Both the position numbers and the translations under genes were made by a program. The notes under the pieces were generated by a model. That model made no database searches. It was not told the DNA's origin and saw only the letters and a program-made list of their open reading frames with translations. A stretch of DNA of 64,000 bases from Nitrospirales bacterium (GTDB lineage: Bacteria; Nitrospirota; Nitrospiria; Nitrospirales; NS-4), in assembly GCA_036505795.1 (NCBI GenBank), contig DASXSU010000095.1, forward strand, positions 18,242 to 82,241, read 5' to 3'. Positions within the stretch are counted from its first letter, which is position 1; every line of letters starts with the position of its first letter. Positions 1 to 14,938 of this stretch are shown piece by piece.

Positions 1-1465
1 CCATCTCGGTCGTGGTCTTCGCGCTCTTCATGAGAAGACCGGTCAAGGGCGTGACGGTCAGCAGCACAAAGAGCACGACCAGCACCTGCGTCGTGGAAAA
101 ATAATTAATCCGGGTAATGGCCGGAACGAAATATCCCCACACCCCCAGAACGACGACGACGATGGCCGCCAGGCCGAGGATGACGCTCATCCCGGCCCTC
201 GCGGCCTTAGCCCACCCTGCGGTTTCCTGTTTCCCCGCGCGCCAATACATGATGAAACTCATAAATGTCACGAGGATCATCAAGTTCGCAACAGTCATTT
301 TCGCCGACATTACGCCGAACACACCCAGTAAGGGATGGTGCGTTCCGCCCATCTTGCGCGCCTCTTCGAGGCTAGCGACAAGTGAGTGAGGCGTCATCCA
401 TACCCCCAGGCAGACCAGAAGAATCACCAACATGGTCAGGATTGGGCGCCGGTATTTTGGCTCGGAGCCCGGAATGCGATACATGATGCCCATCCAAAAA
501 TAGTAATTGGCCCCCAAGAAGAGAACGCCGATCAACATGGCCTGAAGGATGAAGAGCCATGATAAAAAGCCCCCCATTAAAGTAATGCCCATTTGCTGGT
601 TGTATTGGTACACCTCCCGCATGAGCCAGTACCCGGCGAACGGGAGCGGCAACAATCCGAAGACTCCGATGAAGTTGCCGACATAGCCCATCCAGTCATA
701 ATGCACGCGCTCTTCCTGATTGGCCGCCATGATGTACCGCAGACCCGCATAGGCGCCGCAAATAAAGCCGCCCAGAACGACGTTCGCGATCAGGCGATGA
801 ATATTGACCGGCCACCAGGTGGGGTTCCAGGTTGCCGCCCAGGCTCTTGCCCACATGCTGCCCTCCCCGATCACCACGGGGCTCGCCTGAAACGTCGCCC
901 AGGAGTTCGGCACGATCATAATGAAAAACGCAAAGACGTTCAGGAGAAACCCCAAGAACAGGTGCATCCCCTTTTTTCTTCCTTGCATCGCGTCCCAGCC
1001 ATACCAGTACAGGTACAGCGTGGCCGTCTCCAGCAGAAAGAGGACACAGTAAAACACAAACGACGGAAAGAAGAGATCCGTCAGGTAGTTCATGAGCTTG
1101 GGATAGAGCCCGATCAACATAAATAACAGAATGCCGCCAAACAAGGCCGTGGTGGCGTAAGCGGAGGTCAAAAGCTTTGTGAATTCCTTCGCGAGCTTAT
1201 CGTAACGCGGATCCTTGCTCCGCACCCCTACGATCTCGCAGACCCAAGCAAAGATCGGCACACCCAGCACAAATCCGGCCAAGAGCAGGTGTTGCTGAGC
1301 CACGATCCAGATGAGATTCCGGCTGCCCAGTCCTGGGATGTCACGGTACTCAACGGCGGCTGCCGCCGGCGGGGCCTCCTGGGCGAAGCCTAAGGACAAC
1401 GGCGCCAATGTCAGGATCAGCATTAGAAAGAGAATAATGTATGGGATCACGTTACGACTACGCAT
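1..1465 (-). CDS. cytochrome bd-like oxidase, CydA-like membrane subunit (paralog B); C-terminus runs off the window edge
   Basis: Absent from the supplied ORF track. My reverse-strand translation from ATG 1465-1463 is open for 488 codons to position 2: MRSRNVIPYIILFLMLILTLAPLSLGFAQE...IWIVAQQHLLLAGFVLGVPIF...LLETATLYLYWYGWD...WWPVNIHRLIANVVLGGF...GGTHHPLLGVFG. It is collinear with the 601-aa protein at 5213-7018 and with the CydA heme-ligand regions. It starts 3 nt after the stop of the upstream gene. Confidence 0.8.
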   Translation of the reverse strand, partial: MRSRNVIPYIILFLMLILTLAPLSLGFAQEAPPAAAAVEYRDIPGLGSRNLIWIVAQQHLLLAGFVLGVPIFAWVCEIVGVRSKDPRYDKLAKEFTKLLTSAYATTALFGGILLFMLIGLYPKLMNYLTDLFFPSFVFYCVLFLLETATLYLYWYGWDAMQGRKKGMHLFLGFLLNVFAFFIMIVPNSWATFQASPVVIGEGSMWARAWAATWNPTWWPVNIHRLIANVVLGGFICGAYAGLRYIMAANQEERVHYDWMGYVGNFIGVFGLLPLPFAGYWLMREVYQYNQQMGITLMGGFLSWLFILQAMLIGVLFLGANYYFWMGIMYRIPGSEPKYRRPILTMLVILLVCLGVWMTPHSLVASLEEARKMGGTHHPLLGVFGVMSAKMTVANLMILVTFMSFIMYWRAGKQETAGWAKAARAGMSVILGLAAIVVVVLGVWGYFVPAITRINYFSTTQVLVVLFVLLTVTPLTGLLMKSAKTTTEM

Positions 1466-1468
1466 GAC

Positions 1469-2290
1469 CTATTTCCCCTTGTGCTCGGGCTTCTTCCCTT
1501 CCTTCTTTTCTTTCGCTTTTTCCTGTTCCAACGTATGCAGGACGGCTTCGGCTTGCACCAGAGATGTTTCAGTCTGCCTGAGCATCTCCTCGGGCTTCAT
1601 GGGCTTAGCTACCTTGGCAACCTTGGGTTTATACTCTTCGGAAGGGTGCGGGGTCGTCACCGGCAACACGATCCAAAATGCGATGGTCAGAAGAACGACT
1701 ACTCCGGCGAACGAGATAAATAGCAACCCCTGATCTCGCGGCACCCGAGCATAATCCCAGCGGCGGACTCTCTCCGAGAGCGGGGCAGTCGTCCGGCGCC
1801 CGGTGGATGTCACGGTGGCCTTAATCCGCCAGCCATAAACTTGTAAGGCGACCGCTCCAACCAGCACCGCAACGATCACGGTCGGAATGCTCCATAACAA
1901 CAGTTCCAGCGTGATCTGTTCGGCGATTGGAAATTGCGGAAACAGTTTTTTGATCCCCGCGATGATACTGGCTGCGAGCGATTTCCCGACCGACACCGCG
2001 GCGCCGACGGCGAAATAGGAGGCCACCCCAAAAGCGACCACGATTACGGCGCCTTGCCACCACAACGCCAGGCCGATCGGTCCCTCCAGCTCCAGGCCAT
2101 GCCGCTCCAGAAAGTACGTCCGCGCGGTCAGCCCAAGGGCCCAGATATCTATAGGGATCGAGACGATAAGCAGCGCCGTCAGGCCGGGCCCTTCCCAGGG
2201 ATGAATCTGCATGGCCAGCAGGAGCACGGCCACGATCATCTTGAGAGGAAACCCGGTCCAAAAGGCGGACCAGCAAATGGCCCAGCCCAC
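1469..2290 (-). CDS. polytopic membrane protein of unknown function with a Lys/Glu-rich C-terminal tail, embedded in the respiratory operon
   Basis: 273-aa ORF with several hydrophobic helices (LLLAMQIHPW, AVIVVAFGVASYF, VIVAVLVGAVAL, LLFISFAGVVVLLTIAFWIV) and the tail EQEKAKEKKEGKKPEHKGK. It sits between cytochrome b and oxidase B with gaps of 43 and 3 nt. I recognised no family. Confidence 0.6.
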   Translation of the reverse strand: MGWAICWSAFWTGFPLKMIVAVLLLAMQIHPWEGPGLTALLIVSIPIDIWALGLTARTYFLERHGLELEGPIGLALWWQGAVIVVAFGVASYFAVGAAVSVGKSLAASIIAGIKKLFPQFPIAEQITLELLLWSIPTVIVAVLVGAVALQVYGWRIKATVTSTGRRTTAPLSERVRRWDYARVPRDQGLLFISFAGVVVLLTIAFWIVLPVTTPHPSEEYKPKVAKVAKPMKPEEMLRQTETSLVQAEAVLHTLEQEKAKEKKEGKKPEHKGK

Positions 2291-2333
2291 CTTGATGGAT
2301 GAGACGCTCTCGACCGCGTGATCTGTGGTTCCG

Positions 2334-3419
2334 TTAATCGAGATACTCCCGGTTCAGGATTGCCGAGATCGTCAAGACCACGATGCCGATCATGACCACC
2401 GCCCAGGAGACAAGGGCAACGGGCCGCTTGAAGATGTCTCGTTCGGGGCTGCGATCGATAAAGGGCAACGCCGCTAGGAGCAGCATGAACAGCGTCGGGA
2501 TCGCGATGGCGGCCATGAACTGCCCCAACTCGCCTGAAAACATTTTCCAGCGGAGCAGCTGAAACAGGAAAAGGAAATACCATTCCGGCTCGGGATGATA
2601 ATCCCCCGGGTCCGGTGTCGCCTCCTGCAGCAATTCAACCGGTTCAATCAGCGCGAGCGCTGAGATTGTCAGGAAGACCGCCGCCATCGCGATGATGTCC
2701 TTCCATACCTGGCGCGGGAAAAAGAAGTCCGTTTTGACCTTCAGTTCCTCAGTTGACCCGCGGAACGGCCCCGCGGGGCCGGCTGACCGGAAGAAAAAGA
2801 GGTGCAGCCCCGCCAACCCCATCAAGGCGGCCGGCAAGACCATGACATGGATCACGAAGAATCGGCTTAGCGTCATCTGACCCGGTGTCGGGCCGCCCTT
2901 GAGGAATCGCGCCAGAAAGTCTCCCACGACCGGAGTCTTATCCATGATCTCCACGCCGACGGTGGTGGCCCAATACGCGCGCTGATCCCAGGGCAGGAGA
3001 TAGCCGGTGAAACCGAACGCCATCACAAGGCCGAAGAGCGCCAAGCCGACAAGCCAGACCATCTCGCGCGGCTTTTTATACGCGCCCCACAGAAAGACCT
3101 GGGACATGTGCGCAAAGACTATTACGACCATCGCCGACGAGCCCCAGAAATGATAGCTCAAGATGAACCAGCCGTAGTCGACCTCATGCAGAATGTACTG
3201 AGTGCTGGCATACGCATGATCCGCGCTCGGGATGTAATAAAACATCAACAAAATGCCGGTGACCACCTGCATGATAAAGATGAACAGCAAGACCGACCCG
3301 AAGACATAGGCCCACCGCGATCCGCCTTTGATCGGCTCGTTCATCATCTTCGTCTCGATCGACTTCAAGCCGATCCGCTCATCCACGAAGTCATAGACTT
3401 TTTGGGCGACGGCGTTCAT
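2334..3419 (-). CDS. cytochrome b of a bc/b6f-type complex (fused b6 plus subunit IV-like)
   Basis: 361 aa. RWAYVFGSVLLFIFIMQVVTGILLMFYY, HFWGSSAMVVIVFAHM, GYLLPWDQRAYWAT and RFFVIHVMVLPA are the classic cytochrome b heme-His and PEWY-region context. Its start overlaps the Rieske stop at 3419. Confidence 0.92.
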   Translation of the reverse strand: MNAVAQKVYDFVDERIGLKSIETKMMNEPIKGGSRWAYVFGSVLLFIFIMQVVTGILLMFYYIPSADHAYASTQYILHEVDYGWFILSYHFWGSSAMVVIVFAHMSQVFLWGAYKKPREMVWLVGLALFGLVMAFGFTGYLLPWDQRAYWATTVGVEIMDKTPVVGDFLARFLKGGPTPGQMTLSRFFVIHVMVLPAALMGLAGLHLFFFRSAGPAGPFRGSTEELKVKTDFFFPRQVWKDIIAMAAVFLTISALALIEPVELLQEATPDPGDYHPEPEWYFLFLFQLLRWKMFSGELGQFMAAIAIPTLFMLLLAALPFIDRSPERDIFKRPVALVSWAVVMIGIVVLTISAILNREYLD

Positions 3420-4345
3420 TACGCGATCCGAACCTGATCGTTTTTTCCGGCCTTGTACTCGATATCGATGACCTCGATCTCACCGGCGGCGGAGACTTTG
3501 ATCGGCAGAAGGTCGAGCGGCCGCGGAGCCGGTCCATCGAGGACCTTGCCGGTCACGTCATAGATGCTCAGGTGGCAGGGACACAAGAACACCTGTCCAA
3601 GGACTCTGTGGGAGCGCCATTTATAGCCGCAACCCAGGTGGGGGCATTTTCCGGAGTATGCGACATACGGCATCGTCGCCTTATTCACCCAGACGACGTT
3701 GCCCTCATTGTCGAAGAAGTTGACGTCACCGTGGGGGTAGATTTTCTGGAGAACCTCCGGGCTGGCCTTGACTACCCAGTTACTCTTATCATCCTCGCGG
3801 GTCAGCACCGAATCTTTGACGCTTTTTTTGAAGATGAACTGCACGCCGACATTTTCCTGTTTGATCTTGCTGATGTTGCCGACCTTCCACCAACGGTTGT
3901 CGAAGCGCGCATACATCGGTTTCATGATATAGCGGAGCACCGGCCAGATCAGCGGGAGTCCGATGAGCACGCCCATGAGAGTCGTAAATCCCGCGAAAAA
4001 CCTGCGTCGTGGAACGCTCCTCTCCAGTTCGGGGAACGGAACGAATACTTTGCCGCACTCGACATCGACCTTTTCTTCTAGATGAGGAATTTCTATTTCT
4101 TTGGAGCTCAGAAAATTTTCGCGGGCGAATATCGGAAACTCCGCGAGTTGGGCCGAACTGCAGAGCAGGTCGACGGAATCCTCCCGTGTCGTGCCAACAG
4201 CCGTCATCGGCACCTGGCGCTCGGTGCCGTTCACTCTCACAACGATGTGGCTGAGCTCAAGGGAGAGAGGATCGGCGATGACATGGGCCACTTCCCCGGC
4301 GACCCCGTCGGTACAGCGAACCTTGGACTTGATGTGGGGCTGCAT
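3419..4345 (-). CDS. Rieske [2Fe-2S] protein with an N-terminal PRC-barrel-like extension
   Basis: 308 aa. Rieske boxes are CPHLGCG and CPCHLSIY. An internal twin-arginine motif and TM helix (SVPRRRFFAGFTTLMGVLIGLPLIWPVL) lie near aa 110. The N-terminal ~75 aa (VRCTDGVAGEVAHVIADPLSLELSHIVVRVNGTERQVPMTAV) look like a PRC-barrel. Confidence 0.88.
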   Translation of the reverse strand: MQPHIKSKVRCTDGVAGEVAHVIADPLSLELSHIVVRVNGTERQVPMTAVGTTREDSVDLLCSSAQLAEFPIFARENFLSSKEIEIPHLEEKVDVECGKVFVPFPELERSVPRRRFFAGFTTLMGVLIGLPLIWPVLRYIMKPMYARFDNRWWKVGNISKIKQENVGVQFIFKKSVKDSVLTREDDKSNWVVKASPEVLQKIYPHGDVNFFDNEGNVVWVNKATMPYVAYSGKCPHLGCGYKWRSHRVLGQVFLCPCHLSIYDVTGKVLDGPAPRPLDLLPIKVSAAGEIEVIDIEYKAGKNDQVRIA

Positions 4346-4379
4346 ATGACGTTTATCTGTTACGCGCGATAGTCTACTG

Positions 4380-5210
4380 CTACTTCTTGATCGGTTTCGG
4401 GGTCTCCACGGCGCTATCCTTTAACGTCCCGAGATATGCGACAAGCTGATCGATCTCCTGATCCGACATCAATTCCTTGTACTTGTCCGGCATAAGCTTC
4501 TTGTTATATTCCTTTTCGAAGCCCTCGGCCATGTAGGCGCGGGGATTTAAAATTTTCTCCTTGAGCTCCTCGGGCTTCATCAGATTGCCGACATTGTCAA
4601 GATGAGGGCCTCGCTTCTTCAGACCGCCCTTGCCGCCTACCTTGTGACAGTTATAGCATTCCTGTAGATCGTACTGCTCCTGCCCAAGCGCCACGAGATT
4701 ACCCCCCGCCCCGCCTGCTTTGGGAATTCCGGGTTGGGCGCCTTTCGCTCCCGCTTCGCTCTCCTTAATTTGCGCGCCGCCGAGGGTCTCAAGCCGCTTG
4801 AGAATGGCGTGGCTTTGCGCGGTGAGCTCCTCCGTGCGTTTCAGCAGCTCATCGACCTTCCCTTTTTCCGTTGCCGCCATTTTCGGTTTGACGATTTTGT
4901 CGATCTTGCCCTTCTCAACTTGGGGATCATATTGCGGGAGTATAGTGGCCCCCGCGATAAAGACGCCCGAGATCACGGCATAAAAGAAGACAAGCGCGAC
5001 GACGGCCTTCAGCCCGTCGACCCGCGTCACCGGCGGGGCGTCGAGCAGAATGTACACCACCGTGCCCAAGAAGGCGTAAAACACGAACATGATCTGAAAT
5101 ACCTGGGGAAAGTGCATCAGGCGGGCAGCGATCACGAGCACGATCGCCGCGATGGCTCCCATCGCGATTCGGGAGACCAACAACCTTAACAGACTCTTAG
5201 GTGACGGCAT
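4380..5210 (-). CDS. membrane-anchored monoheme c-type cytochrome (class I)
   Basis: 276 aa with N-terminal TM helices, a coiled linker and a C-terminal domain carrying a single CxxCH (ECYNCHK). A distal Met context follows (KKLMPDKYKELMSDQEIDQLVAYL). It lies 2 nt downstream of oxidase A. Confidence 0.85.
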   Translation of the reverse strand: MPSPKSLLRLLVSRIAMGAIAAIVLVIAARLMHFPQVFQIMFVFYAFLGTVVYILLDAPPVTRVDGLKAVVALVFFYAVISGVFIAGATILPQYDPQVEKGKIDKIVKPKMAATEKGKVDELLKRTEELTAQSHAILKRLETLGGAQIKESEAGAKGAQPGIPKAGGAGGNLVALGQEQYDLQECYNCHKVGGKGGLKKRGPHLDNVGNLMKPEELKEKILNPRAYMAEGFEKEYNKKLMPDKYKELMSDQEIDQLVAYLGTLKDSAVETPKPIKK

Positions 5211-5212
5211 GC

Positions 5213-7018
5213 CTACTCCACCCCAGCAATTGCCGGCATGGCCTTCGGCGAAGCAGCATGCGCCTTCTCTTTACCGGTCTTCAGGGTCAAGATAATGGCA
5301 AAACTGACGATGATGTAAAAGGTGACTGTAATACCGGTGATCATCCAGCTGGAATAGCCCAAAGTCGGCGTGAACGACTCATTCGTAAAATCGTACTGAA
5401 GATTAAATACGTGAAAATACTTGCGCGTCAATTCCCGGACCGCGCCCATCAGCCCCATGGTCCAGATGGCGCTGAAGGCCAGGAATACCAATACAAACTG
5501 AGAGATAAAATCAATCTTGCCCCACACGATCCGCCCCGTGCGCAAGGCGCGGTTGTAAAGGATATAGTTCACGATTGTCACGAACACCAGCGTGAATGCG
5601 GCGGCGTTCTTGGCCGGCATCAGTGCGAGCATGTCCCATGAAACCGTGCCGAAGAAGCCCAGGTGCACCTCCCCGTGAGGCAGGCTGAGCGATCCATCGT
5701 CCGGAGCCAAGGCCTGTGTGGCAACAAACGCATGGGGGGTCATCCAGATCGCGTTCCCGATGATCACCATGAGGAAGGCAACCTTGACCATTGTCTGAGC
5801 AGAAACCGTCCAGGGTGTGATCTTTGCGATGATTAACCATACGATGACGTAAGCGGCCGGCGCGACCAACGACATGATGTCGGGAATGGGCCATTTGGAC
5901 CACATCAACATGAAGACCACCGGCACCGTGATCATTAACAGCATCGTAGCCGCCGACATCCGAATACGCTCTAGGCCTTCAATCCGTTTCATGCTCAGCC
6001 AGATATAGTAGTTACTGGCCAGAAAGATGAGCCCGACCATCGCCCCCTGCATCTCAAAGAACATCGACAACTGATCGGCCATCATGTACGGACAGATCGA
6101 GGCATCGTAATCGCAGAGCTCATACGCCAGCAGGTACCCGGCGAACGGCAACAGCAACAACGCGCCGACCCCGATCATATTGCCCACAAAACCAAACCAA
6201 TCGTAGAAGGCCCGGTCCTCATCGGTCTTCGATGCCATAAACATATACGCCGCGATCAACCCGGCGATGAACCCGCCGAACACCACATTGCCGACGGTCC
6301 GATGGATATTTAACGGCCACCAACTGTAGTTGTTGATCTTGTCCCACAGTGTCGCCACGGTCTCAATGTAAGTTTTGAGATCTATCCCTCCCTCCGTGGC
6401 TTTGACCGGGGTGTTCATGAACGAGGTAGGGCCGTCGATCACGAAGAGTGTGATAATCCCGATAACATTGAGGAGGACTCCGAGGGCGATATGGCGCATC
6501 TTCTTCGGGCCTTGCAATGCGTCCCAGGTATACCAGTACAGGTAGAGAACGATCGTCTCGCCGATGAATAACAGCGGGTAGATGATCGCGAAGAGCGCGA
6601 AGAAGTGATTGACCAGCCAGATGGTGAACTGGCCATAAGTCGCGAGCAGCACAAAGATGAAGAGCCCTCCCGTCAGGGCGGTCATGCTGTAGAGAATGAC
6701 CGTGACCTTGGTAACCTCTTTGGCTAATCGCTCGTAGCGCCCGTCTGCGCTCTTCCATCCCAGAAATTCACTGATGACGATGAAGATCGGCGCGCCGAGG
6801 ATGAAGGCGGCGAACAGGATGTGCAGCTGGGCCACGACCCAGACGGCTGCGCGATTGCCGCCCCAGGGGAAACTATGCGCTTTGGGTTCCGGCAATTGGG
6901 CGTATGCGGCGGCTCCTCCAATGAGCAGAAGGCCTACGGCAATGAGAAGAGATCGGGGGAAAAGCGTGCTCCATTGAATGTTTCTTTCAGGCACCACAGG
7001 CGCTCTCTTCATCGTCAC
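5213..7018 (-). CDS. cytochrome bd-like oxidase, CydA-like membrane subunit (paralog A)
   Basis: 601 aa and polytopic. VVAQLHILFAAFILGAPIF matches the CydA helix-1 His, LFIGETIVLYLYWYTWD the conserved Glu, and WWPLNIHRTVGNVVFGGF the heme b558 His equivalent. There is no long Q-loop and no adjacent cydB. Confidence 0.85.
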   Translation of the reverse strand: MTMKRAPVVPERNIQWSTLFPRSLLIAVGLLLIGGAAAYAQLPEPKAHSFPWGGNRAAVWVVAQLHILFAAFILGAPIFIVISEFLGWKSADGRYERLAKEVTKVTVILYSMTALTGGLFIFVLLATYGQFTIWLVNHFFALFAIIYPLLFIGETIVLYLYWYTWDALQGPKKMRHIALGVLLNVIGIITLFVIDGPTSFMNTPVKATEGGIDLKTYIETVATLWDKINNYSWWPLNIHRTVGNVVFGGFIAGLIAAYMFMASKTDEDRAFYDWFGFVGNMIGVGALLLLPFAGYLLAYELCDYDASICPYMMADQLSMFFEMQGAMVGLIFLASNYYIWLSMKRIEGLERIRMSAATMLLMITVPVVFMLMWSKWPIPDIMSLVAPAAYVIVWLIIAKITPWTVSAQTMVKVAFLMVIIGNAIWMTPHAFVATQALAPDDGSLSLPHGEVHLGFFGTVSWDMLALMPAKNAAAFTLVFVTIVNYILYNRALRTGRIVWGKIDFISQFVLVFLAFSAIWTMGLMGAVRELTRKYFHVFNLQYDFTNESFTPTLGYSSWMITGITVTFYIIVSFAIILTLKTGKEKAHAASPKAMPAIAGVE

Positions 7019-7048
7019 CGCTCCCTGTTATCCGATGTCGCGCCGCGC

Positions 7049-7633
7049 TTACTTGCCGTCTTTTTTCGGCGAGTCGCTAGGCTTCGACGCGGGCGCGCCT
7101 CCCACCGGCTTGGGTTCACCGGCGGGCACATCGGGACTCGCAACCGGCGCCGCTTTCCCGATCTGGTCCGCTTGAACCCACTGTTTGGTTCCCGGATCCC
7201 ATCCCAGGCCCTTTAATCCGAAGTTGTGCTCATAGGCCATGGCTTTCCAACGATCCTCTTCGCTCAACTTGCTTTTCCAGGCCTTCATCTTGGTGTTCGG
7301 CACGCCTTCAGAAATCCGCCAGAACCACACACTGTCGGAATACAGCTTCATCCGCTCCGATTTGCGGAAGTCGCGGGCGCCGGCCTTGACCGGCTTGCCG
7401 TCCTTGCCGTGACAGGAGGAGCAGTTCACATCGATATTCTTCACCCCTTCAAAGATCTCTTTGCCCTCGGCGATGATCTTTTCGTCGGTCCACCAACCGG
7501 CCGGCATGTGTTTGTCCGCGTATTCAGGCGGCGCGGGCGGCGGCGGAGCGGTACTTTCCTGCTCTTCCGCGCAGCCGCCCAGAAATGCTCCATATCCTAG
7601 AAGCATGACTCCCAGCAGGTATCGGATCTTCAT
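7049..7633 (-). CDS. lipoprotein monoheme c-type cytochrome with a Pro-rich C-terminal tail
   Basis: 194 aa with a signal peptide and lipobox (LGGCA) and a single CxxCH (NCSSCHGKDG). A Met-ligand region (VPNTKMKAW) and the tail PVASPDVPAGEPKPVGGAPASKPSDSPKKDGK follow. It is the first gene of the operon. Confidence 0.85.
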   Translation of the reverse strand: MKIRYLLGVMLLGYGAFLGGCAEEQESTAPPPPAPPEYADKHMPAGWWTDEKIIAEGKEIFEGVKNIDVNCSSCHGKDGKPVKAGARDFRKSERMKLYSDSVWFWRISEGVPNTKMKAWKSKLSEEDRWKAMAYEHNFGLKGLGWDPGTKQWVQADQIGKAAPVASPDVPAGEPKPVGGAPASKPSDSPKKDGK

Positions 7634-7823
7634 ACAACCTCAAGCTCCTTTCTCAGACATCCCGAGAGAACGGGGTAGATTCGGCCATTCATCAGGACTC
7701 GTTTGGCATACTGCCGGGGGTTCATCGAGTCTGGCCGCTTTTCTTTCTCACAATCTCACAAAAAAGACGCTTTCCCGGAGAGCCGCGGCTTCTACGGCAA
7801 AAGCGCCCTGTTCAATTCCTCAT

Positions 7824-8378
7824 TTACGCTTTTCGCTTCTTGCCTCGTCGCTTCCCTTGGTTTCTTGCCTTCGGCTTTCGCCACCAGACAATTGCCCCCA
7901 CGGCCCCGGCCACCACAATCCCGACAATGATAGGGCGCCAGTAGCCGTTTTCCGGGACCTGTCCTACCGGAACCGGGCCGATATTCACCGTCGTCTGGCG
8001 TTCTGTTTTCAGGTCGTTCGGGCTGAATTCCGCACGAACCGTCTTCGCTTCTTCTAGTCCGAGCTTCTCCTCAATGGCTGTAATCTGAACAGGGTCTCCT
8101 GCATTACCATTATGCAGGTGAATGACCGCTTTATAATATCCGGACCCATCCGTGTAGGTCGTAACCGCTTCAACCGACTGATCCCTCAAATCTCGGACAT
8201 GAACTCGGGCATCCCCTACGGGCTTGCCCTGCTTGTCGTATACGTACCCGGATACCGTGAACCGGTGATCCGTTTCGTGCATGGCAGACGCCTGGCACGG
8301 ACTACCGAGCTCGACAGCACACAATCCCACAAGGCTGAAAAAGACCGCCGCGAGCTTTCGGGGCAGTCCTCCAGGCAT
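7824..8378 (-). CDS. secreted, C-terminally anchored protein with a carboxypeptidase-regulatory-like (Ig-like) domain
   Basis: 184 aa with a signal peptide. VSGYVYDKQGKPVGDARVHVRDL...TYTDGSGYYKAVI is the typical CarboxypepD_reg pattern. A C-terminal TM helix (IIVGIVVAGAVGAIVWW) is followed by a basic tail. Confidence 0.55.
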   Translation of the reverse strand: MPGGLPRKLAAVFFSLVGLCAVELGSPCQASAMHETDHRFTVSGYVYDKQGKPVGDARVHVRDLRDQSVEAVTTYTDGSGYYKAVIHLHNGNAGDPVQITAIEEKLGLEEAKTVRAEFSPNDLKTERQTTVNIGPVPVGQVPENGYWRPIIVGIVVAGAVGAIVWWRKPKARNQGKRRGKKRKA

Positions 8379-8516
8379 TACACGTACACTAATCGCAAAA
8401 CCCCGCCAAAGTGCGGCCTATCTAACATAGGCCACCAGCGTTGTCAATCACTTCTTGGGTTTCTGCGAGACGTGCGGCATTGACAGTCTTCGCCCGGTCA
8501 TTTAGCCTCCTCAGCG

Positions 8517-9275
8517 GTGAAGAAGATCAAGCGAAAAGCAGTTCACCAGGAACTGAAACTGCCGACATTTCTGATAGGGTATGCCGCTCCAGAGCCTCTT
8601 CCCCCGGGCTTTCTATCGGCCTGGTTTAATCAAGAGTACGGTGGACCCCTTCACATCCAGCTGACGTCGGGTGAAAACAGCACAATCTTCGAGGCCGTCC
8701 ATGGGCCATGGGCCGCGTCGGCCGATACCAACTTGCCTCCTGCGATCGGAAACCCCTGGCATGAACGGCTGGGCTGGGGTCACAGCCGGGCCGCTCAGGT
8801 TCTTCCGCTTCGCCTCGCCGGCCGGGACACTCGGGATCTCATATTAATGGTGACACGGCTGGCACGCGGACTCACCTTGCTCACGGGCGGCACCGCCTAC
8901 GATACGGCAACGGGGACCTATTTAAATCCCTCGGACTGGAGCGATCGTCCGTTGCGCGCCTTTGAGATCACGGACCATCTCCGGATTGAGGAGGTCAGCG
9001 GGCGCGAGGATGGTCGGGTCTGGTTTCACACGCGCGGCCTTGCAAAATTCGGTCTCGAAGACATCGAGATCTACCGTCCGGTTGGGCTTTCCGAGAAACC
9101 GGTGATTGAGATGATGACCGAGATGGCGGAGAGTCTGATCGACCTCGGTAAGGCCCCGAACGTCGGCGAAGCCCTGACGTTGAGCAACGGCCGCTCAGTT
9201 CGTATCATCCGCCACCGGACCGATCAGTCATATGGCATTCGCTTGAACCTGAGGGAAGTCGAGTGGGCGCCGTAG
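8517..9275 (+). CDS. hypothetical cytoplasmic protein
   Basis: 252-aa ORF with a GTG start and clean coding appearance, and no strong competing ORF. I could not name a family with confidence; the C-terminal part (WFHTRGLAKFGLEDIEIY) may resemble a DUF4261-type domain, unverified. Confidence 0.5.
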   Translation: MKKIKRKAVHQELKLPTFLIGYAAPEPLPPGFLSAWFNQEYGGPLHIQLTSGENSTIFEAVHGPWAASADTNLPPAIGNPWHERLGWGHSRAAQVLPLRLAGRDTRDLILMVTRLARGLTLLTGGTAYDTATGTYLNPSDWSDRPLRAFEITDHLRIEEVSGREDGRVWFHTRGLAKFGLEDIEIYRPVGLSEKPVIEMMTEMAESLIDLGKAPNVGEALTLSNGRSVRIIRHRTDQSYGIRLNLREVEWAP

Positions 9276-9380
9276 CGCGAGCCCGCAACCGTTGACACCC
9301 GACCGCGCGGGCCGCGATCGTCGTGCCGAAGGGCTCATTAGATATATGTGGTCTGCAGGGTACCCGTATCGCCCATCAGG

Positions 9381-9896
9381 TCAAGAGGTGAGCTGCGCGG
9401 TGCGCAACGCGCAATCGCGCGCGACGGTCAGCAGATCGCCGTAGCGATCCTGGGTGTGGATCTGCATCGCCACCGGTGGTGGAATGGGGACTGTCACCGA
9501 TGCGGGTGGCAATGGCTCAACCAAATCCCGCGCGATGAAACGATAAACCGTGCCGTCTTTGAGCCGCAGCACCCACCGTAGGGAAGTGGCATACCAAGCC
9601 AACGTGGACTGATAAAACCGCGTAGGCGTACTGGTATGCGCCCGACTGGAGTTATAGAAGTTTGTCCCGGCAGTTCGCAGGTATCTGATGCGGCCGCCAT
9701 CCGGCAGGATCAAACGCACTTCGCTGCATGGATCATTGCGCAGCAAGCAGAGTTCATAGCTATGCGTGGCACCGATGCCGAACGCCCGTGGCACTGGATC
9801 CAGCGTGCGATAGGCGCTCGTCAGTATCGAAATCACGATCCCGCCCGCTTGCTTGTTCATAGGTCCTCCTGATTGTTGGCCCTGCAGTAAATGCAT
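9381..9896 (-). pseudogene. Rhs/YD-repeat protein fragment (N-terminal core piece only)
   Basis: The 171-aa ORF (likely ATG at 9860) contains FGIGATHSYELCLL...VRLILPDGGRIRYL...WVLRLKDGTVYRF...IHTQDRYGDLLTVARD. That is the FGxGWxHSY / PDG / KDGT / DRxGN spacing found at the start of Rhs cores. It has no N-terminal secretion region, repeat shell or toxin tip. The flanks leave room for only about 100-150 bp more. Confidence 0.5.
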
Positions 9897-10049
9897 GCAG
9901 TCACAGACTCGCCTCTTATACGCCAGTGAAGATGTCCAGTCTGTTCACTATTGCTCACACCTACCGAAGAGGAGGGGTCTTGCCTAACTTATAAAGTGGA
10001 CGCTAAGGGTATAGGTTTCACGGTCCGTGCTGCGAACGACACGCTGGGA

Positions 10050-12980
10050 TCAGTGGTCCTCACGGCGCGTCCCCTCCGGGTTCGGCAAGGAGTCCGGATT
10101 GCGCTCCAGCCTTACCGGCAAATTGACCAAAAAGGTCGTGCCCTTCCCGATTTCGCTTTTGACTTCAATATATCCGCCATGGGCAACGATAATCCGCTGA
10201 CAGATAGGCAGACCCAGGCCCGTGCCTTCGCGCTCTTTGCTTTCGTGTTTGGTGGTAAAAAAGGGCACAAAAATGTTGTCCAGCGTCTCCGGCGGCATGC
10301 CGCATCCGGTGTCCGTGATCTCGATCTGCACCCATATGCCGTCCGGCTTCATTAGAGGACAGGTTTTCGTGATGATCTGGCCGACTCCAGCTGGCTCCAT
10401 AGCATCGAGGGAGTTGATGTACAGATTCCCCAGCACCTGACGCATTTGCTGGCTATCCATCCAGACATGCGGGAGGTTTTCGGCCAATTCCGTGCAGAGG
10501 GCCACGCCCTGGCTTTGGGCCCTGGCTTCGATCGCGAGCTGCGAGGCGGCGACCAGGTCATTGAGGTTCTCCTCTTGCCGCTGGGGCTCATGGAGACGCG
10601 CAAACCCCAAGACCTCCCCTGAGAGCCGTTCAATGCGGGCAGAATCGTTCATCACGACCTTGCGGAACTCTTCCATAAATTCTGGATCGTCCTTTCGCAT
10701 CGGCACGAGTTCCAGAAACGTGTTGATGGAGACCAGCGGATTACGGATCTCATGCGCAAAGCCGCCGGCAATCGTCTCGAAGGCGTGCGCGCGCTCATCG
10801 TGCTTCTCGCGGCGCTGCACGTCCTTCTCCAGCTGATGGAACGCTGCATTCTCAAAAGCGCTCGCGGCACTTGCCGCCAGAATCGACAAATTCTTAAGAT
10901 CCTCGTGCGTATACATCCCGCGATTCGGCTTCGGCCCCAGATTGATAAAGCCGATTAGAAGGCCTTGATTTTGGAGCGGTAGACATAACTCTGCTTCCAG
11001 GTCATCCAGTGTCCCGATGATGCGTTTGCTGAAGACGCCGGGTGTATCACCCCTTCGCTCCAATTCCTCTTTCAGGATGGCTTGAGACCTCTCCTGAAGG
11101 TACTGGGGTAAAAGTTCTTTAGCGCTGATCGTGACGGCTTTCAGCCGAGGCTTATTAATACCGTGGACAGCGGCCAAGATATACTCGTCCTTTTCCTTAT
11201 CGAGCAGAAAGATCGAAATCTTTCCAATGCCCAGAGCCTCGGAGAGGATGGAGACGGTTTTCGCCGTTAAGGCCTTTAATTCCAGGATGCTCCTCATGGC
11301 GGTACTGAAGGCATTCAGGGCATCGTAGGTATTGTGTTGGTGAGGGAACAAGGCCTTGCCGACTACTTGCTCCATTCCTTTGCGGACATTCACCAGCAGC
11401 TCGGCCAACACTATGAGAATGGTCAACAGCACACCCGCGAGGAGATAGTAGGTCGTCCCGGTAAAGATCCATACCACGCCGAGAATGACGAAGTAGGCCG
11501 GGGTCAGAGCGAGCGCTTGAGCGTATGGAAGCACGTCCGTCCTTGGAAGCCAAGGGCTCTCCAGAAATTCATACGCCACGATCGCATACATGACGATACT
11601 GATCCAGAGACCGACAAATACAAATCCAATGGGATAGAACTCCGCCCCGTAGGCTTGCGCGAAGTCAATGGACGCGAGATAGCCGATGGCAAAGGCCACC
11701 AAAACATATTTAATTCTCGTGGCCTCTGCGGGGGCATCGGCCGTTTTGGCCTTAAACCCGCGATACAATGCAAGCAGCGAGAGCCCACTCACCGTACCGA
11801 AATACCCAAGAAAGAGGGGATACAGCGCGCCAGCCTTTAAATAGACCCCCCAGTCATGCACATAGCGACCGCTGATTAGGTAATCAGTCGGAATGAGCGC
11901 TAGGAAGCCGGTGCTGATTATGTACTGTACGACGACGCTTATCTTCTCGTCAGAACGTTTCAGAAACCTCATACAGAAATGATAAAAGAGGGCTGGAATG
12001 AAGACGACCCCCACATAGGCCATTTTTCCCCACAGGACCGCCTCCCCTTCCTGTGGTGAAGAGAACATCATGAAGATGCTGAACAACCAGATGCAGACGC
12101 CGGCGCAGAGCAGCCCAAAAGTGAGGTTGACATCATTTCGCGGATTCTTCAGCACAATCCAGAGGCCGCAGCCAAAGACAAAAGACGCAGCCACCAACGG
12201 CGGGATCGCATAAGCGGTGGCGCGATGGCTGACCGCGACAGTTAGAAAGACCGGGACCAGCAGTGCGCCGAGGAGCAGCGCATATGTAAGTCCCTTTTGG
12301 AATACTACCGTAATGTCCATCAACCGATAACGGGCAATGGCATACGTCGTGATGATTGGATACGCCATGATCCCGAAGTTTCCGTACGGATATAAATCAA
12401 TCTTGAAGATGGGCAAGTAGTCGAGCGAGCCTGTGCCGTAGGCTAAGGCGAAGGCTATAAAGAAATACTTAAACTGGTTGCGCTTTATACCTGAAGCATG
12501 ACGATACAGTCTAAAAACTTGGTAATGGGCATAAATAACGAGCCATGCCCACCAACAGAAGAAGAGAACAAATAATGCGGATCCTGGCACCGCGTAATAA
12601 AATGCTGCAAAAAGAAATCGCACATTTCCAAAAAACAATGATGAGAAACCGATGAGAGGAAAGAGCAGCGTTGCGATTATATAGTTAATGACAACGAGCT
12701 TCCTTTGGGTTAGCGCACAAAAAATGGTCACAAAGTGGTAGAAGAAAACCGGTATCCAAACGACGCCAAAGGCAAAAGAGAAGCGCCAGGCCAACAGGGC
12801 TTGGTGCGGATCCTTCTCCAGGGCAATCCATGTCGCGCCGATGCCCCAGACAGCGACGGACGCAGTAAACAGCAACCATAGTCTGTTTAACTTGGCTCGT
12901 TTGTCCTGCGCGAGGACAAAGAGTCCCATAGCCAGAGAGCTGGCGGCTGTTAAAAGTCCCGATAGTGCAAAGGCATTCAT
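10050..12980 (-). CDS. sensor histidine kinase: tandem 7TM sensor modules, GAF, HisKA, HATPase_c
   Basis: 976 aa. About 480 aa of membrane domain consist of two collinear 7TM modules. A GAF-like region (ISIFLLDKEKDEYILAAVHG...LPLQNQGLLIGFINLG) follows, then the H-box FAHEIRNPL and ATPase motifs (ITDTGCGMP, GTGLGLPICQRIIVAHGG). Confidence 0.9.
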   Translation of the reverse strand: MNAFALSGLLTAASSLAMGLFVLAQDKRAKLNRLWLLFTASVAVWGIGATWIALEKDPHQALLAWRFSFAFGVVWIPVFFYHFVTIFCALTQRKLVVINYIIATLLFPLIGFSSLFFGNVRFLFAAFYYAVPGSALFVLFFCWWAWLVIYAHYQVFRLYRHASGIKRNQFKYFFIAFALAYGTGSLDYLPIFKIDLYPYGNFGIMAYPIITTYAIARYRLMDITVVFQKGLTYALLLGALLVPVFLTVAVSHRATAYAIPPLVAASFVFGCGLWIVLKNPRNDVNLTFGLLCAGVCIWLFSIFMMFSSPQEGEAVLWGKMAYVGVVFIPALFYHFCMRFLKRSDEKISVVVQYIISTGFLALIPTDYLISGRYVHDWGVYLKAGALYPLFLGYFGTVSGLSLLALYRGFKAKTADAPAEATRIKYVLVAFAIGYLASIDFAQAYGAEFYPIGFVFVGLWISIVMYAIVAYEFLESPWLPRTDVLPYAQALALTPAYFVILGVVWIFTGTTYYLLAGVLLTILIVLAELLVNVRKGMEQVVGKALFPHQHNTYDALNAFSTAMRSILELKALTAKTVSILSEALGIGKISIFLLDKEKDEYILAAVHGINKPRLKAVTISAKELLPQYLQERSQAILKEELERRGDTPGVFSKRIIGTLDDLEAELCLPLQNQGLLIGFINLGPKPNRGMYTHEDLKNLSILAASAASAFENAAFHQLEKDVQRREKHDERAHAFETIAGGFAHEIRNPLVSINTFLELVPMRKDDPEFMEEFRKVVMNDSARIERLSGEVLGFARLHEPQRQEENLNDLVAASQLAIEARAQSQGVALCTELAENLPHVWMDSQQMRQVLGNLYINSLDAMEPAGVGQIITKTCPLMKPDGIWVQIEITDTGCGMPPETLDNIFVPFFTTKHESKEREGTGLGLPICQRIIVAHGGYIEVKSEIGKGTTFLVNLPVRLERNPDSLPNPEGTRREDH

Positions 12981-13200
12981 GTACGCGATAGCTTCCCTAC
13001 ATAGTAGGGCTCAGAGTGGCAGGATTCAGGGCAGATCGTGGCTGCAATTGGATTACATGGAAGCGATATCAAGCCTATCAAGTGGCAATAGTAACGCGAA
13101 GGGCCTCCGAGGTAAAGTCCGATTGCCAGATATTCCGTGTTGCAGTCGTGGAGAGGGCAAGCGTTCGTTCTAAAGCTCAGCCCTCTCCGACGACCTCAAG

Positions 13201-14481
13201 CTATACGAGATGAACTCTGTGTTCTCCCTTCCGAGAGCCGGAGCCATAAAACGCGTAACAAGCCTCTAAGGCAAGAAAGAGGTATTCCAGGCTCCGTTGA
13301 GCAGCATGGGTCACTTTTTGTTGGATCTCTGAAGTGGTCGCGTGGAGTTTCATAATCTCCAGCGCCTGATATGGATGCAGATCATCATATGCAGAATGAG
13401 CTTCCATCCACATATAGGCTCGCTTGTCTAAGAGGACCCCATCCTGACCTTGGTATTTCATAAATCCCTTGACCATGATGGTGGCGATGCCTTGCGTGAC
13501 GCCTTCAATTGCATAGTTCGTCGCCGCCACAGCCTCGACAAAGCTACCTCTGTTGGTGATCGACCACATCCAATGTGTCAGAGCTTCGACTTCGAGAATA
13601 ACCGGCGTTGTAAATAAGTCTTCTTTGGGTACGCCGAATCCCTTGGCCATATCAATCCATTGATCCGCATGTCGCTTTTCGACTCGCAGATTATCGATTA
13701 AAAACCCTCGAGACATTGGATCAGTAGCTTTGGCTAGGTACGTGGCCATGAACTGGGGAAAGAGCTCGATGAATGGGTAAAACTGAATACTCCATCCTTT
13801 GACCTGTTCCAGAGACAGAGCGCCGCTTGCTGTTTCCTGTACCAATTGTGATTCCCAAATCGCTTGGCGGTACGGCGCCAGATAGTGGTCCATTTCCAGC
13901 ACCCAGGCCGGATCGGGAGTGAACTTCCGGTTTTTCTTCTTTTGCCGCGGAAGAACCTGCTCGGGGCTAGTCGAAAATGTCGTGTCATCGCTGACACTCG
14001 AGGTTCCATGTACAGCAGCCTCGAGGGCAAGACTGTCGGTGGAAATATGAATGGCGAGAAACGCTTTCCCCAGGGCTTCGGCGTTAGTCGTGAGCTCGGT
14101 GACCGCAGAGACCAACAGGGTAGTTTCCCACTCTCTTAAAGCAGCAAATTTTATTCCGGTCATATAGCCCACGGAGGTGTCGCTAGGTCTGCAATAGACG
14201 ACCTGCCCTACCACATGTAGCTGAGCGGCCCCACCTAAACAACAGCGCAGCATGAGCGGAGTGCCGGGAGCCAAACAGACCTCCGACATAAGTCTGAGGC
14301 CTGTCGCGCTAATATTTACGGTATGACCCGGTACGCCGCCTTCCCATCTCTCAAGGCGAAGCTCGATCTGGAGATCGTCCCGCTGGTACGATCGTCGTTC
14401 AACGCCGGCATAAGGCTCTTGCAGCATAACACTCCCTGTTAAAGACGCGGCCTCGCCGTTGGACTTGTGTGTTGAATACAT
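13201..14481 (-). CDS. PilZ domain fused to a heme-oxygenase-like (TenA/PqqC/UndA-type) putative diiron oxidase
   Basis: 426 aa. PilZ motifs are R30-SYQ-R34 (RxxxR) and N56-ISATG (D/NxSxxG). In the C-terminal helical domain I see E268-KR-H271 (ExxH), E326 (AIEGVTQ) and H362-SAY-D366-DL-H369 (HxxxDxxH). That is the ligand spacing I recall for UndA/CADD-type enzymes. Confidence 0.7.
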   Translation of the reverse strand: MYSTHKSNGEAASLTGSVMLQEPYAGVERRSYQRDDLQIELRLERWEGGVPGHTVNISATGLRLMSEVCLAPGTPLMLRCCLGGAAQLHVVGQVVYCRPSDTSVGYMTGIKFAALREWETTLLVSAVTELTTNAEALGKAFLAIHISTDSLALEAAVHGTSSVSDDTTFSTSPEQVLPRQKKKNRKFTPDPAWVLEMDHYLAPYRQAIWESQLVQETASGALSLEQVKGWSIQFYPFIELFPQFMATYLAKATDPMSRGFLIDNLRVEKRHADQWIDMAKGFGVPKEDLFTTPVILEVEALTHWMWSITNRGSFVEAVAATNYAIEGVTQGIATIMVKGFMKYQGQDGVLLDKRAYMWMEAHSAYDDLHPYQALEIMKLHATTSEIQQKVTHAAQRSLEYLFLALEACYAFYGSGSRKGEHRVHLV

Positions 14482-14938
14482 GGCGTACCTCTTTTCCTGG
14501 TCTGAATGCTCCCAACAAAAAGGAGACTATGGGAATGGGTAAAGTGCGTTCTTAGAAAGTTTCCCCAGAACGACCGAGAAAACGCTCGGGGGATGCGCAG
14601 GTACCGAAGCATAGTCTCTGAGGAATCCCTTTGCAACGTAAATTCGTAGGCAAAGGCTCTTAAAAGAAAAGTAAAAGAGGTAATTACCAACGAAGGAGGA
14701 ACACAGGATGCACTTTGATGACCCTCCGCCATGAGAAGCAATTTCGTGTCAGCTACGTCCTGAGTACGTAGCCGTTGTCGGTCCTCGGAGCGCATAAGGG
14801 TAATCGCTCGCTAACAGAATACCGTAGAGCCTAGCACCGTACGTAAGACTTTCGCAAGACCCCCTGCACCACAAGTTCTAAAGTAGTATCAGTAAGGATA
14901 CACGCACCCCAACCAGTGGTGTCCTCAATTCCATACAG

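Follow-up and report, generated by a model that had tools for sequence, protein, structure and literature searches.

Among the nitrite oxidisers of soils, waters and treatment plants, Nitrospira dominate. Since a conventional cytochrome c oxidase is missing from most of them, it is a real question which enzyme serves as their terminal oxidase and how it works; consistently, most Nitrospirales have been described as devoid of heme-copper oxidases (PMC6606698 and comparative genomics papers). The leading candidate, discussed since 2010, is a gene cluster encoding cytochrome bd-like proteins, for which papers citing Luecker et al. (2010) point to the NIDE0901 region of N. defluvii. The related region of N. 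moscoviensis comprises CIII_1, bd-like_1, bd-like_2 (the putative CIV) and alt_nxrC_1, the last located two cytochrome c genes after the putative oxidase; it is strongly transcribed on nitrite, and its products have been proposed to form a CIII-CIV supercomplex, possibly docking nitrite oxidoreductase (NXR) (Mundinger et al. 2019, PMC6606698). In the classification of Murali, Gennis and Hemp (2021; bioRxiv 10.1101/2021.01.16.426971), OR-N1 proteins typically occur with petA/B/D and OR-N2 proteins with several cytochromes c and an ebdC homologue, and both carry a tyrosine at the column of E. coli E99. Comparative genomics published in 2024 and 2025 regards OR-N1 as the probable partner of the NIDE0901-like OR-N2 in a CydAA' oxidase. 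Here we compare with these systems a cluster located at the left end of a 64,000-nucleotide stretch of DNA from an uncultured Nitrospirales bacterium (GenBank assembly GCA_036505795.1, contig DASXSU010000095.1, positions 18,242 to 82,241 of the forward strand; hereafter ‘the window’). We consider it fairly probable that this cluster represents an 11-gene, two-module respiratory operon of the Nitrospirales which encodes two bd-like paralogs, A and B, and in which B is the likely oxygen-reducing subunit.

Like the N. moscoviensis region, the cluster encodes a Rieske protein, a cytochrome b, two bd-like proteins, several cytochromes c and an NxrC-like protein. The first-pass annotation of the window had described a seven-gene operon, and its gene order, coordinates and gaps were borne out by open reading frames and domain matches: all seven genes are co-directional on the minus strand, running from position 7633 to position 1 (open reading frames checked with their translations), at successive distances of 30, 2, 34, -1, 43 and 3 nucleotides. 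The operon is, however, larger than seven genes, with the window edge cutting the cluster. A Joint Genome Institute (JGI) metagenome contig, Ga0376051_0000212 (sample 3300036862, 31.6 kb), encodes an identical cytochrome b, matches window positions 1-13419 with 100% identity and without gaps over 13,419 nucleotides, and reaches 7.7 kb past the window edge, supplying the missing end of the cluster. Extending the sequence in this way, as the first-pass annotation had suggested, completes B to 607 residues (119 codons lie beyond the edge) and recovers four further co-directional genes 3' of B, at distances of 15, 63, -10 and -4 nucleotides between consecutive genes, together with a convergent UbiA-type polyprenyltransferase gene that ends the cluster. 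The whole cluster thus comprises 11 genes with no gap above 63 nucleotides, seven of which lie in the window:

7049..7633, minus strand: gene 1, lipoprotein monoheme cytochrome c, 194 residues; lipobox LGGC, CSSCH at residue 71, PF13442 and PF00034 above cut-off.
5213..7018, minus strand: gene 2, bd-like protein A, 601 residues, GTG start; PF01654 (E = 4e-19), N-terminal part only.
4380..5210, minus strand: gene 3, membrane-anchored monoheme cytochrome c, 276 residues; PF00034 (E = 6e-13), CYNCH at 185.
3419..4345, minus strand: gene 4, Rieske 2Fe-2S protein, 308 residues; PF00355 above cut-off, CPHLGC at 234 and CPCH at 255.
2334..3419, minus strand: gene 5, cytochrome b, 361 residues; PF00033 (E = 4e-50), plus PF13631 and PF00032.
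1469..2290, minus strand: gene 6, membrane protein without family, 273 residues, GTG start (256 residues by the JGI gene call).
1..1465, minus strand: gene 7, bd-like protein B, first 488 of 607 codons; PF01654 (E = 3e-19).
Beyond the window, after B: gene 8, membrane-anchored diheme cytochrome c, 273 residues.
Beyond the window: gene 9, membrane monoheme cytochrome c, 239 residues.
Beyond the window: gene 10, NxrC/EB_dh-type heme b protein, 318 residues; PF09459.
Beyond the window: gene 11, diheme lipoprotein cytochrome c, 268 residues.
Ga0376051_0000212:17244-18122, minus strand, 3.8-4.7 kb past the left window edge: UbiA-type 4-hydroxybenzoate polyprenyltransferase; TIGR01474, 275 bits.

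Seven CxxCH heme motifs are spread over the five cytochromes c of the cluster, each of which possesses either a lipobox or predicted N-terminal transmembrane helices; the first of them, the product of gene 1, is likewise found upstream of A in related loci. The product of gene 10 matches PF09459 (EB_dh) with 78 bits against a cut-off of 33 and TIGR03477 with 107 bits, the latter under its cut-off of 170. It has a hydrophobic segment at each end, that is, a signal peptide and one C-terminal transmembrane helix, as in alt_NxrC_1 of N. moscoviensis, with which it also shares the position two cytochrome c genes after the oxidase. A Pfam domain search of the proteins of the cluster yielded no CydB-family match. 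The operon structure itself was not illuminated by a scan for promoters and terminators, which is uninformative on this point: seven promoter-like sites were found against about five expected from shuffled sequence, which is the shuffle level, and the 23 terminator-like sites (about 12 expected from shuffles) are mostly intragenic, with none at a gene boundary.

Conservation of the cluster is strict. A scan of one genome per species yielded 80 Nitrospirales loci, and when only those loci are counted whose contig leaves enough flanking DNA, all 11 genes occur in the same order in 55 of 56, including the chromosome of N. defluvii (FP929003.1), on which all 11 are collinear with the present cluster. 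The six genes upstream of B keep their order in 60 of 61 loci and the four downstream in all 65. The sole exception, CP070743.1 (Nitrospirota bin371), encodes at 9869-14599 B, two cytochromes c, an EB_dh protein and a further cytochrome c, all without the genes upstream of B; this stand-alone group is flanked by a fatty acid hydroxylase gene upstream and an RNase PH gene downstream, and neither Rieske/cytochrome b nor OR-N1 was found within 10 kb of it. Hence, the half of the cluster starting with B constitutes a separable module (module 2), the preceding six genes forming module 1. Median identities to the window proteins are highest in the cluster for B (82%), followed by cytochrome b (81%), with 68% for A and the lowest value, 38%, for the product of gene 6. 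The N. defluvii orthologues of B (CBK40665.1) and A (CBK40660.1) are 82% and 68% identical, respectively, to the proteins of this lineage; their accession numbers lie five apart, in keeping with a separation of the two genes by five positions. In 57 of 59 related loci the cluster is followed by the UbiA gene, and a gene of quinone biosynthesis is thus fixed beside a respiratory operon; reportedly, in work from 2025 (PMC12324825), nitrifiers contain unusual plastoquinones.

The family relationship of A and B to CydA is confined to their N-terminal parts. In either protein, the CydA profile matches above its cut-off, but only at its positions 3-242 of 418, and the PF01654-type N-terminal ∼250 residues match CydA structures in sequence with E-values of 2e-7 to 4e-9. 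A Foldseek search of the PDB with a low-confidence model retrieved no chains other than those of CydA and CydB (E = 2e-7, about 250 columns, root mean square deviation 2.9-3.7 Å). Both proteins start with a signal-peptide-like N-terminus (AYA/QL in A, GFA/QE in B) and each possess 13 transmembrane helices in addition to this signal-peptide-like helix, as judged from hydropathy and model helices. The heme-ligand and downstream motifs quoted in the first-pass annotation were all located by motif search, namely AQLH63-66, ETIVLYLYWYTWD154, NIHR237 and PHGEVH447 in A, and AQQH56-59, ETATLYLYWYGWD146, NIHR221 and THH375-377 in B, and the alignment with CydA that had been proposed there places them on known residues. 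A H66 and B H59, both invariant, align to H21 of Geobacillus CydA, the heme ligand equivalent to His19; the glutamate of the ET motif (A E154, B E146) aligns to Geobacillus E108; and the histidine of the NIHR motif (A H239, B H223) to Geobacillus H186. A M313 and B M297 are likewise equivalents of a CydA residue and are invariant in both families.

Also in agreement with the first-pass annotation, a Q-loop was found in neither A nor B, considering that the profile match ends at position 242 of 418 and that in the models the sixth CydA-like helix is not followed by any long periplasmic loop, and the cluster contains no CydB partner. Assignment of A and B to canonical CydAB was rejected in view of these two absences and of the tyrosine at the E99 equivalent. 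Membership of either protein in the heme-copper oxidases was likewise rejected, no COX1 domain being present and the Foldseek matches being restricted to CydA and CydB. Instead, A fits OR-N1 and B fits OR-N2 of the NIDE0901 type, placed by operon context, helix count and residues: A is followed by Rieske and cytochrome b within two genes, B by two cytochromes c, the EB_dh protein and a diheme cytochrome c, and both share with the two published families the lack of a quinol site, the His19 and His186 equivalents and ∼14 hydrophobic helices when the signal peptide is counted. The table of Murali et al. gives glycine at the E107 column for OR-N1, whereas our alignments place an invariant glutamate, A E154, at this position. 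OR-N homologues number in the thousands. The equation of B with NIDE0901 is based on what has been published about the gene order and the histidines rather than on a locus tag.

Downstream of the CydA-like part the two paralogs diverge. The first-pass annotation had set A apart by about two extra helices, which has to be revised: both proteins comprise ∼600 residues and carry different two-helix insertions, which in the profile alignment (hhalign) are located at about residues 355-418 of A, before the helix containing the WMTPH motif, and at about residues 427-500 of B, after the helix that follows the WMTPH helix. It is because of these different insertions that plain BLAST and MAFFT misalign the WMTPH region. 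With hhalign, the WMTPH helices of A (425-429) and B are recognized as homologous, A H429 matches B H360, and A P447 and H448 align to B H376 and H377. Hence, A retains at most two of the three histidines which B presents at these positions.

Conservation of histidines was assessed in 119 homologues of B and 118 homologues of A. Invariant in the B family are H59, H168, H223, H255, H360, H376, H377, H525 and H527, so that W356-x3-H360, in which the tryptophan is invariant as well, and H376/H377 are both completely conserved. The A family exhibits invariant H66, H138, H176 and H536, with H239 conserved in 98% and H429 in 99% of the homologues; A H448 is retained in 82% and A H452 in 3%. The triad of B (H360, H376, H377) and H525/H527 are predicted to lie on the periplasmic side, as deduced from the N-termini, the topology of CydA, the order of the model helices and the distribution of positive charges. 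The models were calculated with AlphaFold2 for A and, via a 92% identical relative, for B, using 68-sequence alignments of both families. The triad of B would be a putative site for a bound copper or other metal. Two further features of B were observed: invariant H255 (window 701-703, minus strand) is located in RVHYDW, which reads RAFYDW in A, and H525-W-H527 (Ga0376051_0000212:13527-13535) is located in the loop before the last helix, where A shares only the second histidine, as H536. B H255, H525 and H527 might serve as ligands of an additional cofactor.

Module 1 contains a Rieske/cytochrome b pair, the genes of which overlap by 1 nucleotide and in which all signature residues are present, that is, CxHxGC and CxCH, the four heme-ligand histidines and PEWY. 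The cytochrome b is of the type in which b6 and subunit IV are fused, its best NCBIfam match being cytochrome b6; the ligand pairs are H90/H104 and H191/H206, with a b6-like spacing of 14, and PEWY is located at 278. A heme ci-binding cytochrome b was considered and rejected, the b6-type cysteine being absent. The Rieske protein possesses one transmembrane helix at about residues 116-134 and matches the TIGR01416 and PetC models below cut-off. Ahead of this helix extends an N-terminal region of ∼110 residues (window 4010-4345, minus strand), presumably cytoplasmic, for which no Pfam family was found at E-values up to 10; the N. defluvii Rieske orthologue is equally long (a 315-residue open reading frame). 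The cytochrome c encoded by gene 3, for which hydropathy indicates about three N-terminal transmembrane helices and which matches no c1 or f family, is by its position a candidate c1/f-like partner of Rieske/cytochrome b.

The remaining member of module 1, encoded by gene 6, is a lineage-restricted protein with about five transmembrane helices and a C-terminal tail rich in lysine and glutamate. It has no match in Pfam or NCBIfam, with no Pfam family for the tail at E-values up to 10. All named ones among its 305 homologues are labelled ‘hypothetical protein’ and the named sources are Nitrospirae/Nitrospiraceae, and an exhaustive phmmer search revealed a small family of 62 representatives among 1.84 billion without any remote link. 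It varies fast, with 29-72% identity across loci vs 75-92% for its operon neighbours, and may act as a lineage-specific assembly or linker subunit.

What the sequence shows directly is the set of genes, the arrangement in which they stand, and how well this arrangement and the key residues are conserved; on this basis we infer a scheme that would further involve oxygen reduction by B, copper or another metal at its histidines, a direction of electron flow and possibly a physical supercomplex. Module 1, that is, the lipoprotein cytochrome c, A (OR-N1), the membrane cytochrome c, Rieske, cytochrome b and the small membrane protein of gene 6, would tie the quinone pool to membrane-tethered c hemes through a b6f-like Rieske/cytochrome b core, to which A would be attached as a second bd-like heme protein. 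In module 2, consisting of B (OR-N2), a diheme and a monoheme cytochrome c, the NxrC-like heme b protein and a second diheme cytochrome c, electrons would arrive at B from the periplasmic side, their likely source being nitrite oxidoreductase via the NxrC-like protein and the cytochromes c, and B would reduce oxygen. Module 1 could operate in both directions, with reverse electron transport from the c hemes via Rieske/cytochrome b leading uphill to quinone. That B is the likely oxygen-reducing subunit is suggested by the retention of the CydA heme-ligand residues together with the invariant Trp-x3-His and His-His on the periplasmic side. The first-pass annotation had arrived at a supercomplex leading from quinol via cytochrome c to oxygen, which is essentially the published hypothesis; the gene content fits such a chain, but the NxrC-like heme b protein and three cytochromes c that had been missed point to electron input from nitrite oxidoreductase and not only from quinol. 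Likewise, the two alternative or cooperating catalytic subunits proposed there are indeed both bd-like, but they are not equivalent, the invariant set of three histidines being present in B only.

A more far-reaching version of this scheme would have B constitute a new type of cytochrome c oxidase on a bd scaffold, with a metal, possibly copper, bound at W356-x3-H360 and H376/H377, operating in a megacomplex with OR-N1, Rieske/cytochrome b and a docking site for NXR. If true, B would represent a further class of respiratory oxygen reductases that has converged on a CuB-like site, an idea which dates from 2010; we offer this version tentatively and judge it rather doubtful. Several points weigh against B as an oxygen reductase, in either version. 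The position of Geobacillus E101 (E. coli E99, the glutamate of the proton channel) is occupied by tyrosine in both A and B. The AlphaFold2 models have mean pLDDT scores of 59 and 63, falling below 50 in the C-terminal halves and at the histidine motifs, and since the fold matches CydA/CydB and not subunit I of heme-copper oxidases, any CuB-like site in B would have to be convergent. Searches of the literature found no biochemical or structural study of these bd-like proteins and no biochemical evidence on oxygen reduction, metal content or subunit composition, and the papers from 2024-2025 describe subunit composition, function and oxygen affinity of the OR-N oxidase as still unconfirmed. Some Nitrospirales moreover possess CydAB or cbb3 oxidases according to comparative genomics.

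The rival readings are not fully exclusive of the two-module operon. The specialists' favoured model (2024-2025 papers) has A and B form an obligatory CydAA' heterodimer, in which OR-N1 replaces CydB, with all 11 products united in one supercomplex that docks nitrite oxidoreductase, and a supercomplex has also been proposed for N. moscoviensis (PMC6606698). Joint occurrence of A and B in one co-directional cluster, seen in 60 of the 61 loci that extend far enough upstream, and absence of CydB from the cluster both agree with this model, and a histidine set that is partial in A and full in B is what one would expect of a non-catalytic and a catalytic partner. However, four genes separate A and B, CP070743.1 has B without A within 10 kb, and A possesses the heme-ligand residues that are absent in CydB. 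Moreover, Murali et al. (2021) name OR-N1/OR-N2 as a possible exception to the rule of co-association, with OR-N2 often occurring without another cydA-like gene. We therefore regard an obligatory heterodimer as possible, yet as less than probable. The separability of the modules in CP070743.1 could also be taken to mean that A and B are alternative isoenzymes for different oxygen levels or donors, each catalytic alone, A serving as a quinol oxidase together with Rieske/cytochrome b, and B, together with the cytochromes c, as a cytochrome c or nitrite-linked oxidase. This would agree with Murali et al. (2021), who suggest quinol via the pet subunits as donor for OR-N1 and cytochrome c for OR-N2, and with the presence of the H19, E107 and H186 equivalents and the invariant methionine in both proteins. 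It is made improbable by the state of the triad in A, which is without one of its histidines and conserves the second in only 82% of the homologues (with A-specific H452 in 3%), and by the tight gaps and the uniformly high expression of the region, which speak against differential use.

A different role altogether is envisaged when the bd-like proteins are regarded as heme b electron conduits or quinone-interacting modules, akin to alternative complex III, between NXR or cytochromes c and quinone, with oxygen being reduced elsewhere. Such a role has been put forward for the bd-like relative encoded in the NXR cluster, a protein that even strictly anaerobic anammox bacteria conserve (PMC6606698), and loss of the E99 equivalent in A and B as well as a literature without any measured activity are compatible with it. 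However, most Nitrospirales genomes provide no other candidate cytochrome c oxidase, the quinol-binding residues of CydA and the Q-loop are all absent, and B retains the His19 equivalent, which ligates the oxygen-binding heme, and possesses the invariant histidine triad in addition. Hence, we consider the conduit role quite unlikely and retain the two-module operon, with B as the likely oxygen-reducing subunit, as the reading that is probably correct.

Regarding the surroundings of the cluster, a small protein with a C-terminal transmembrane helix and an Ig fold resembling CarboxypepD_reg, the match scoring under the Pfam cut-off, is encoded at window 7824-8378 (minus strand), 190 nucleotides upstream of the operon; roughly half of the related loci have it at this position as well. 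Window 10050-17548 (minus strand) encodes a 976-residue sensor kinase with 7TM, GAF and HisKA domains and, beyond it, two PilZ-domain fusion proteins, one with a heme-oxygenase-like/TenA domain and the other with acyltransferase/hydrolase and methyltransferase domains. Judging from these domains, regulation linked to cyclic di-GMP could operate near the respiratory operon. Among 20 of the larger remaining open reading frames of the window, all of which are housekeeping or regulatory genes, no other oxidase was found.

The cluster has already been published and is conserved across the Nitrospirales, and the copy described here is an ordinary one which, as such, leaves the state of knowledge unchanged. 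What is added by the present analysis is the strictness of the 11-gene order, the set of invariant histidines of each paralog, the differing insertions and the stand-alone OR-N2 module, details which could guide the choice of constructs and mutants for biochemistry. When compared with canonical CydAB of E. coli, Geobacillus and Mycobacterium, A and B are homologous in sequence and fold over the N-terminal ∼250 residues, but their C-terminal halves are unrelated and contain extra helices and new invariant histidines; furthermore, canonical CydAB uses quinol, while the likely donors of A and B are cytochromes c. By description, module 2 and the module of CP070743.1 resemble TO_1 of ‘Ca. Manganitrophus’ and other Nitrospirota (Yu et al. 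2022, PMC9040806), and unlike TO_1, the module of the Nitrospirales is joined to the module of Rieske/cytochrome b and OR-N1. The pattern W356-x3-H360 and H376-H377 of B resembles the CuB ligands of heme-copper oxidases, namely a histidine with tryptophan at -4 plus His-His, W-x3-H and HH being described in the literature for cbb3 oxidase; however, the distance from His to His-His is 16 residues in B and about 50 in heme-copper oxidases, and the fold differs. Finally, in the actinobacterial bc1-aa3 supercomplex, a quinol:cytochrome c reductase and a terminal oxidase are linked by membrane-bound c hemes in place of a soluble carrier. The Nitrospirales cluster may be viewed as a functionally analogous arrangement in which all five cytochromes c are likewise predicted to be tethered, and in which the oxidase would be derived from cytochrome bd.

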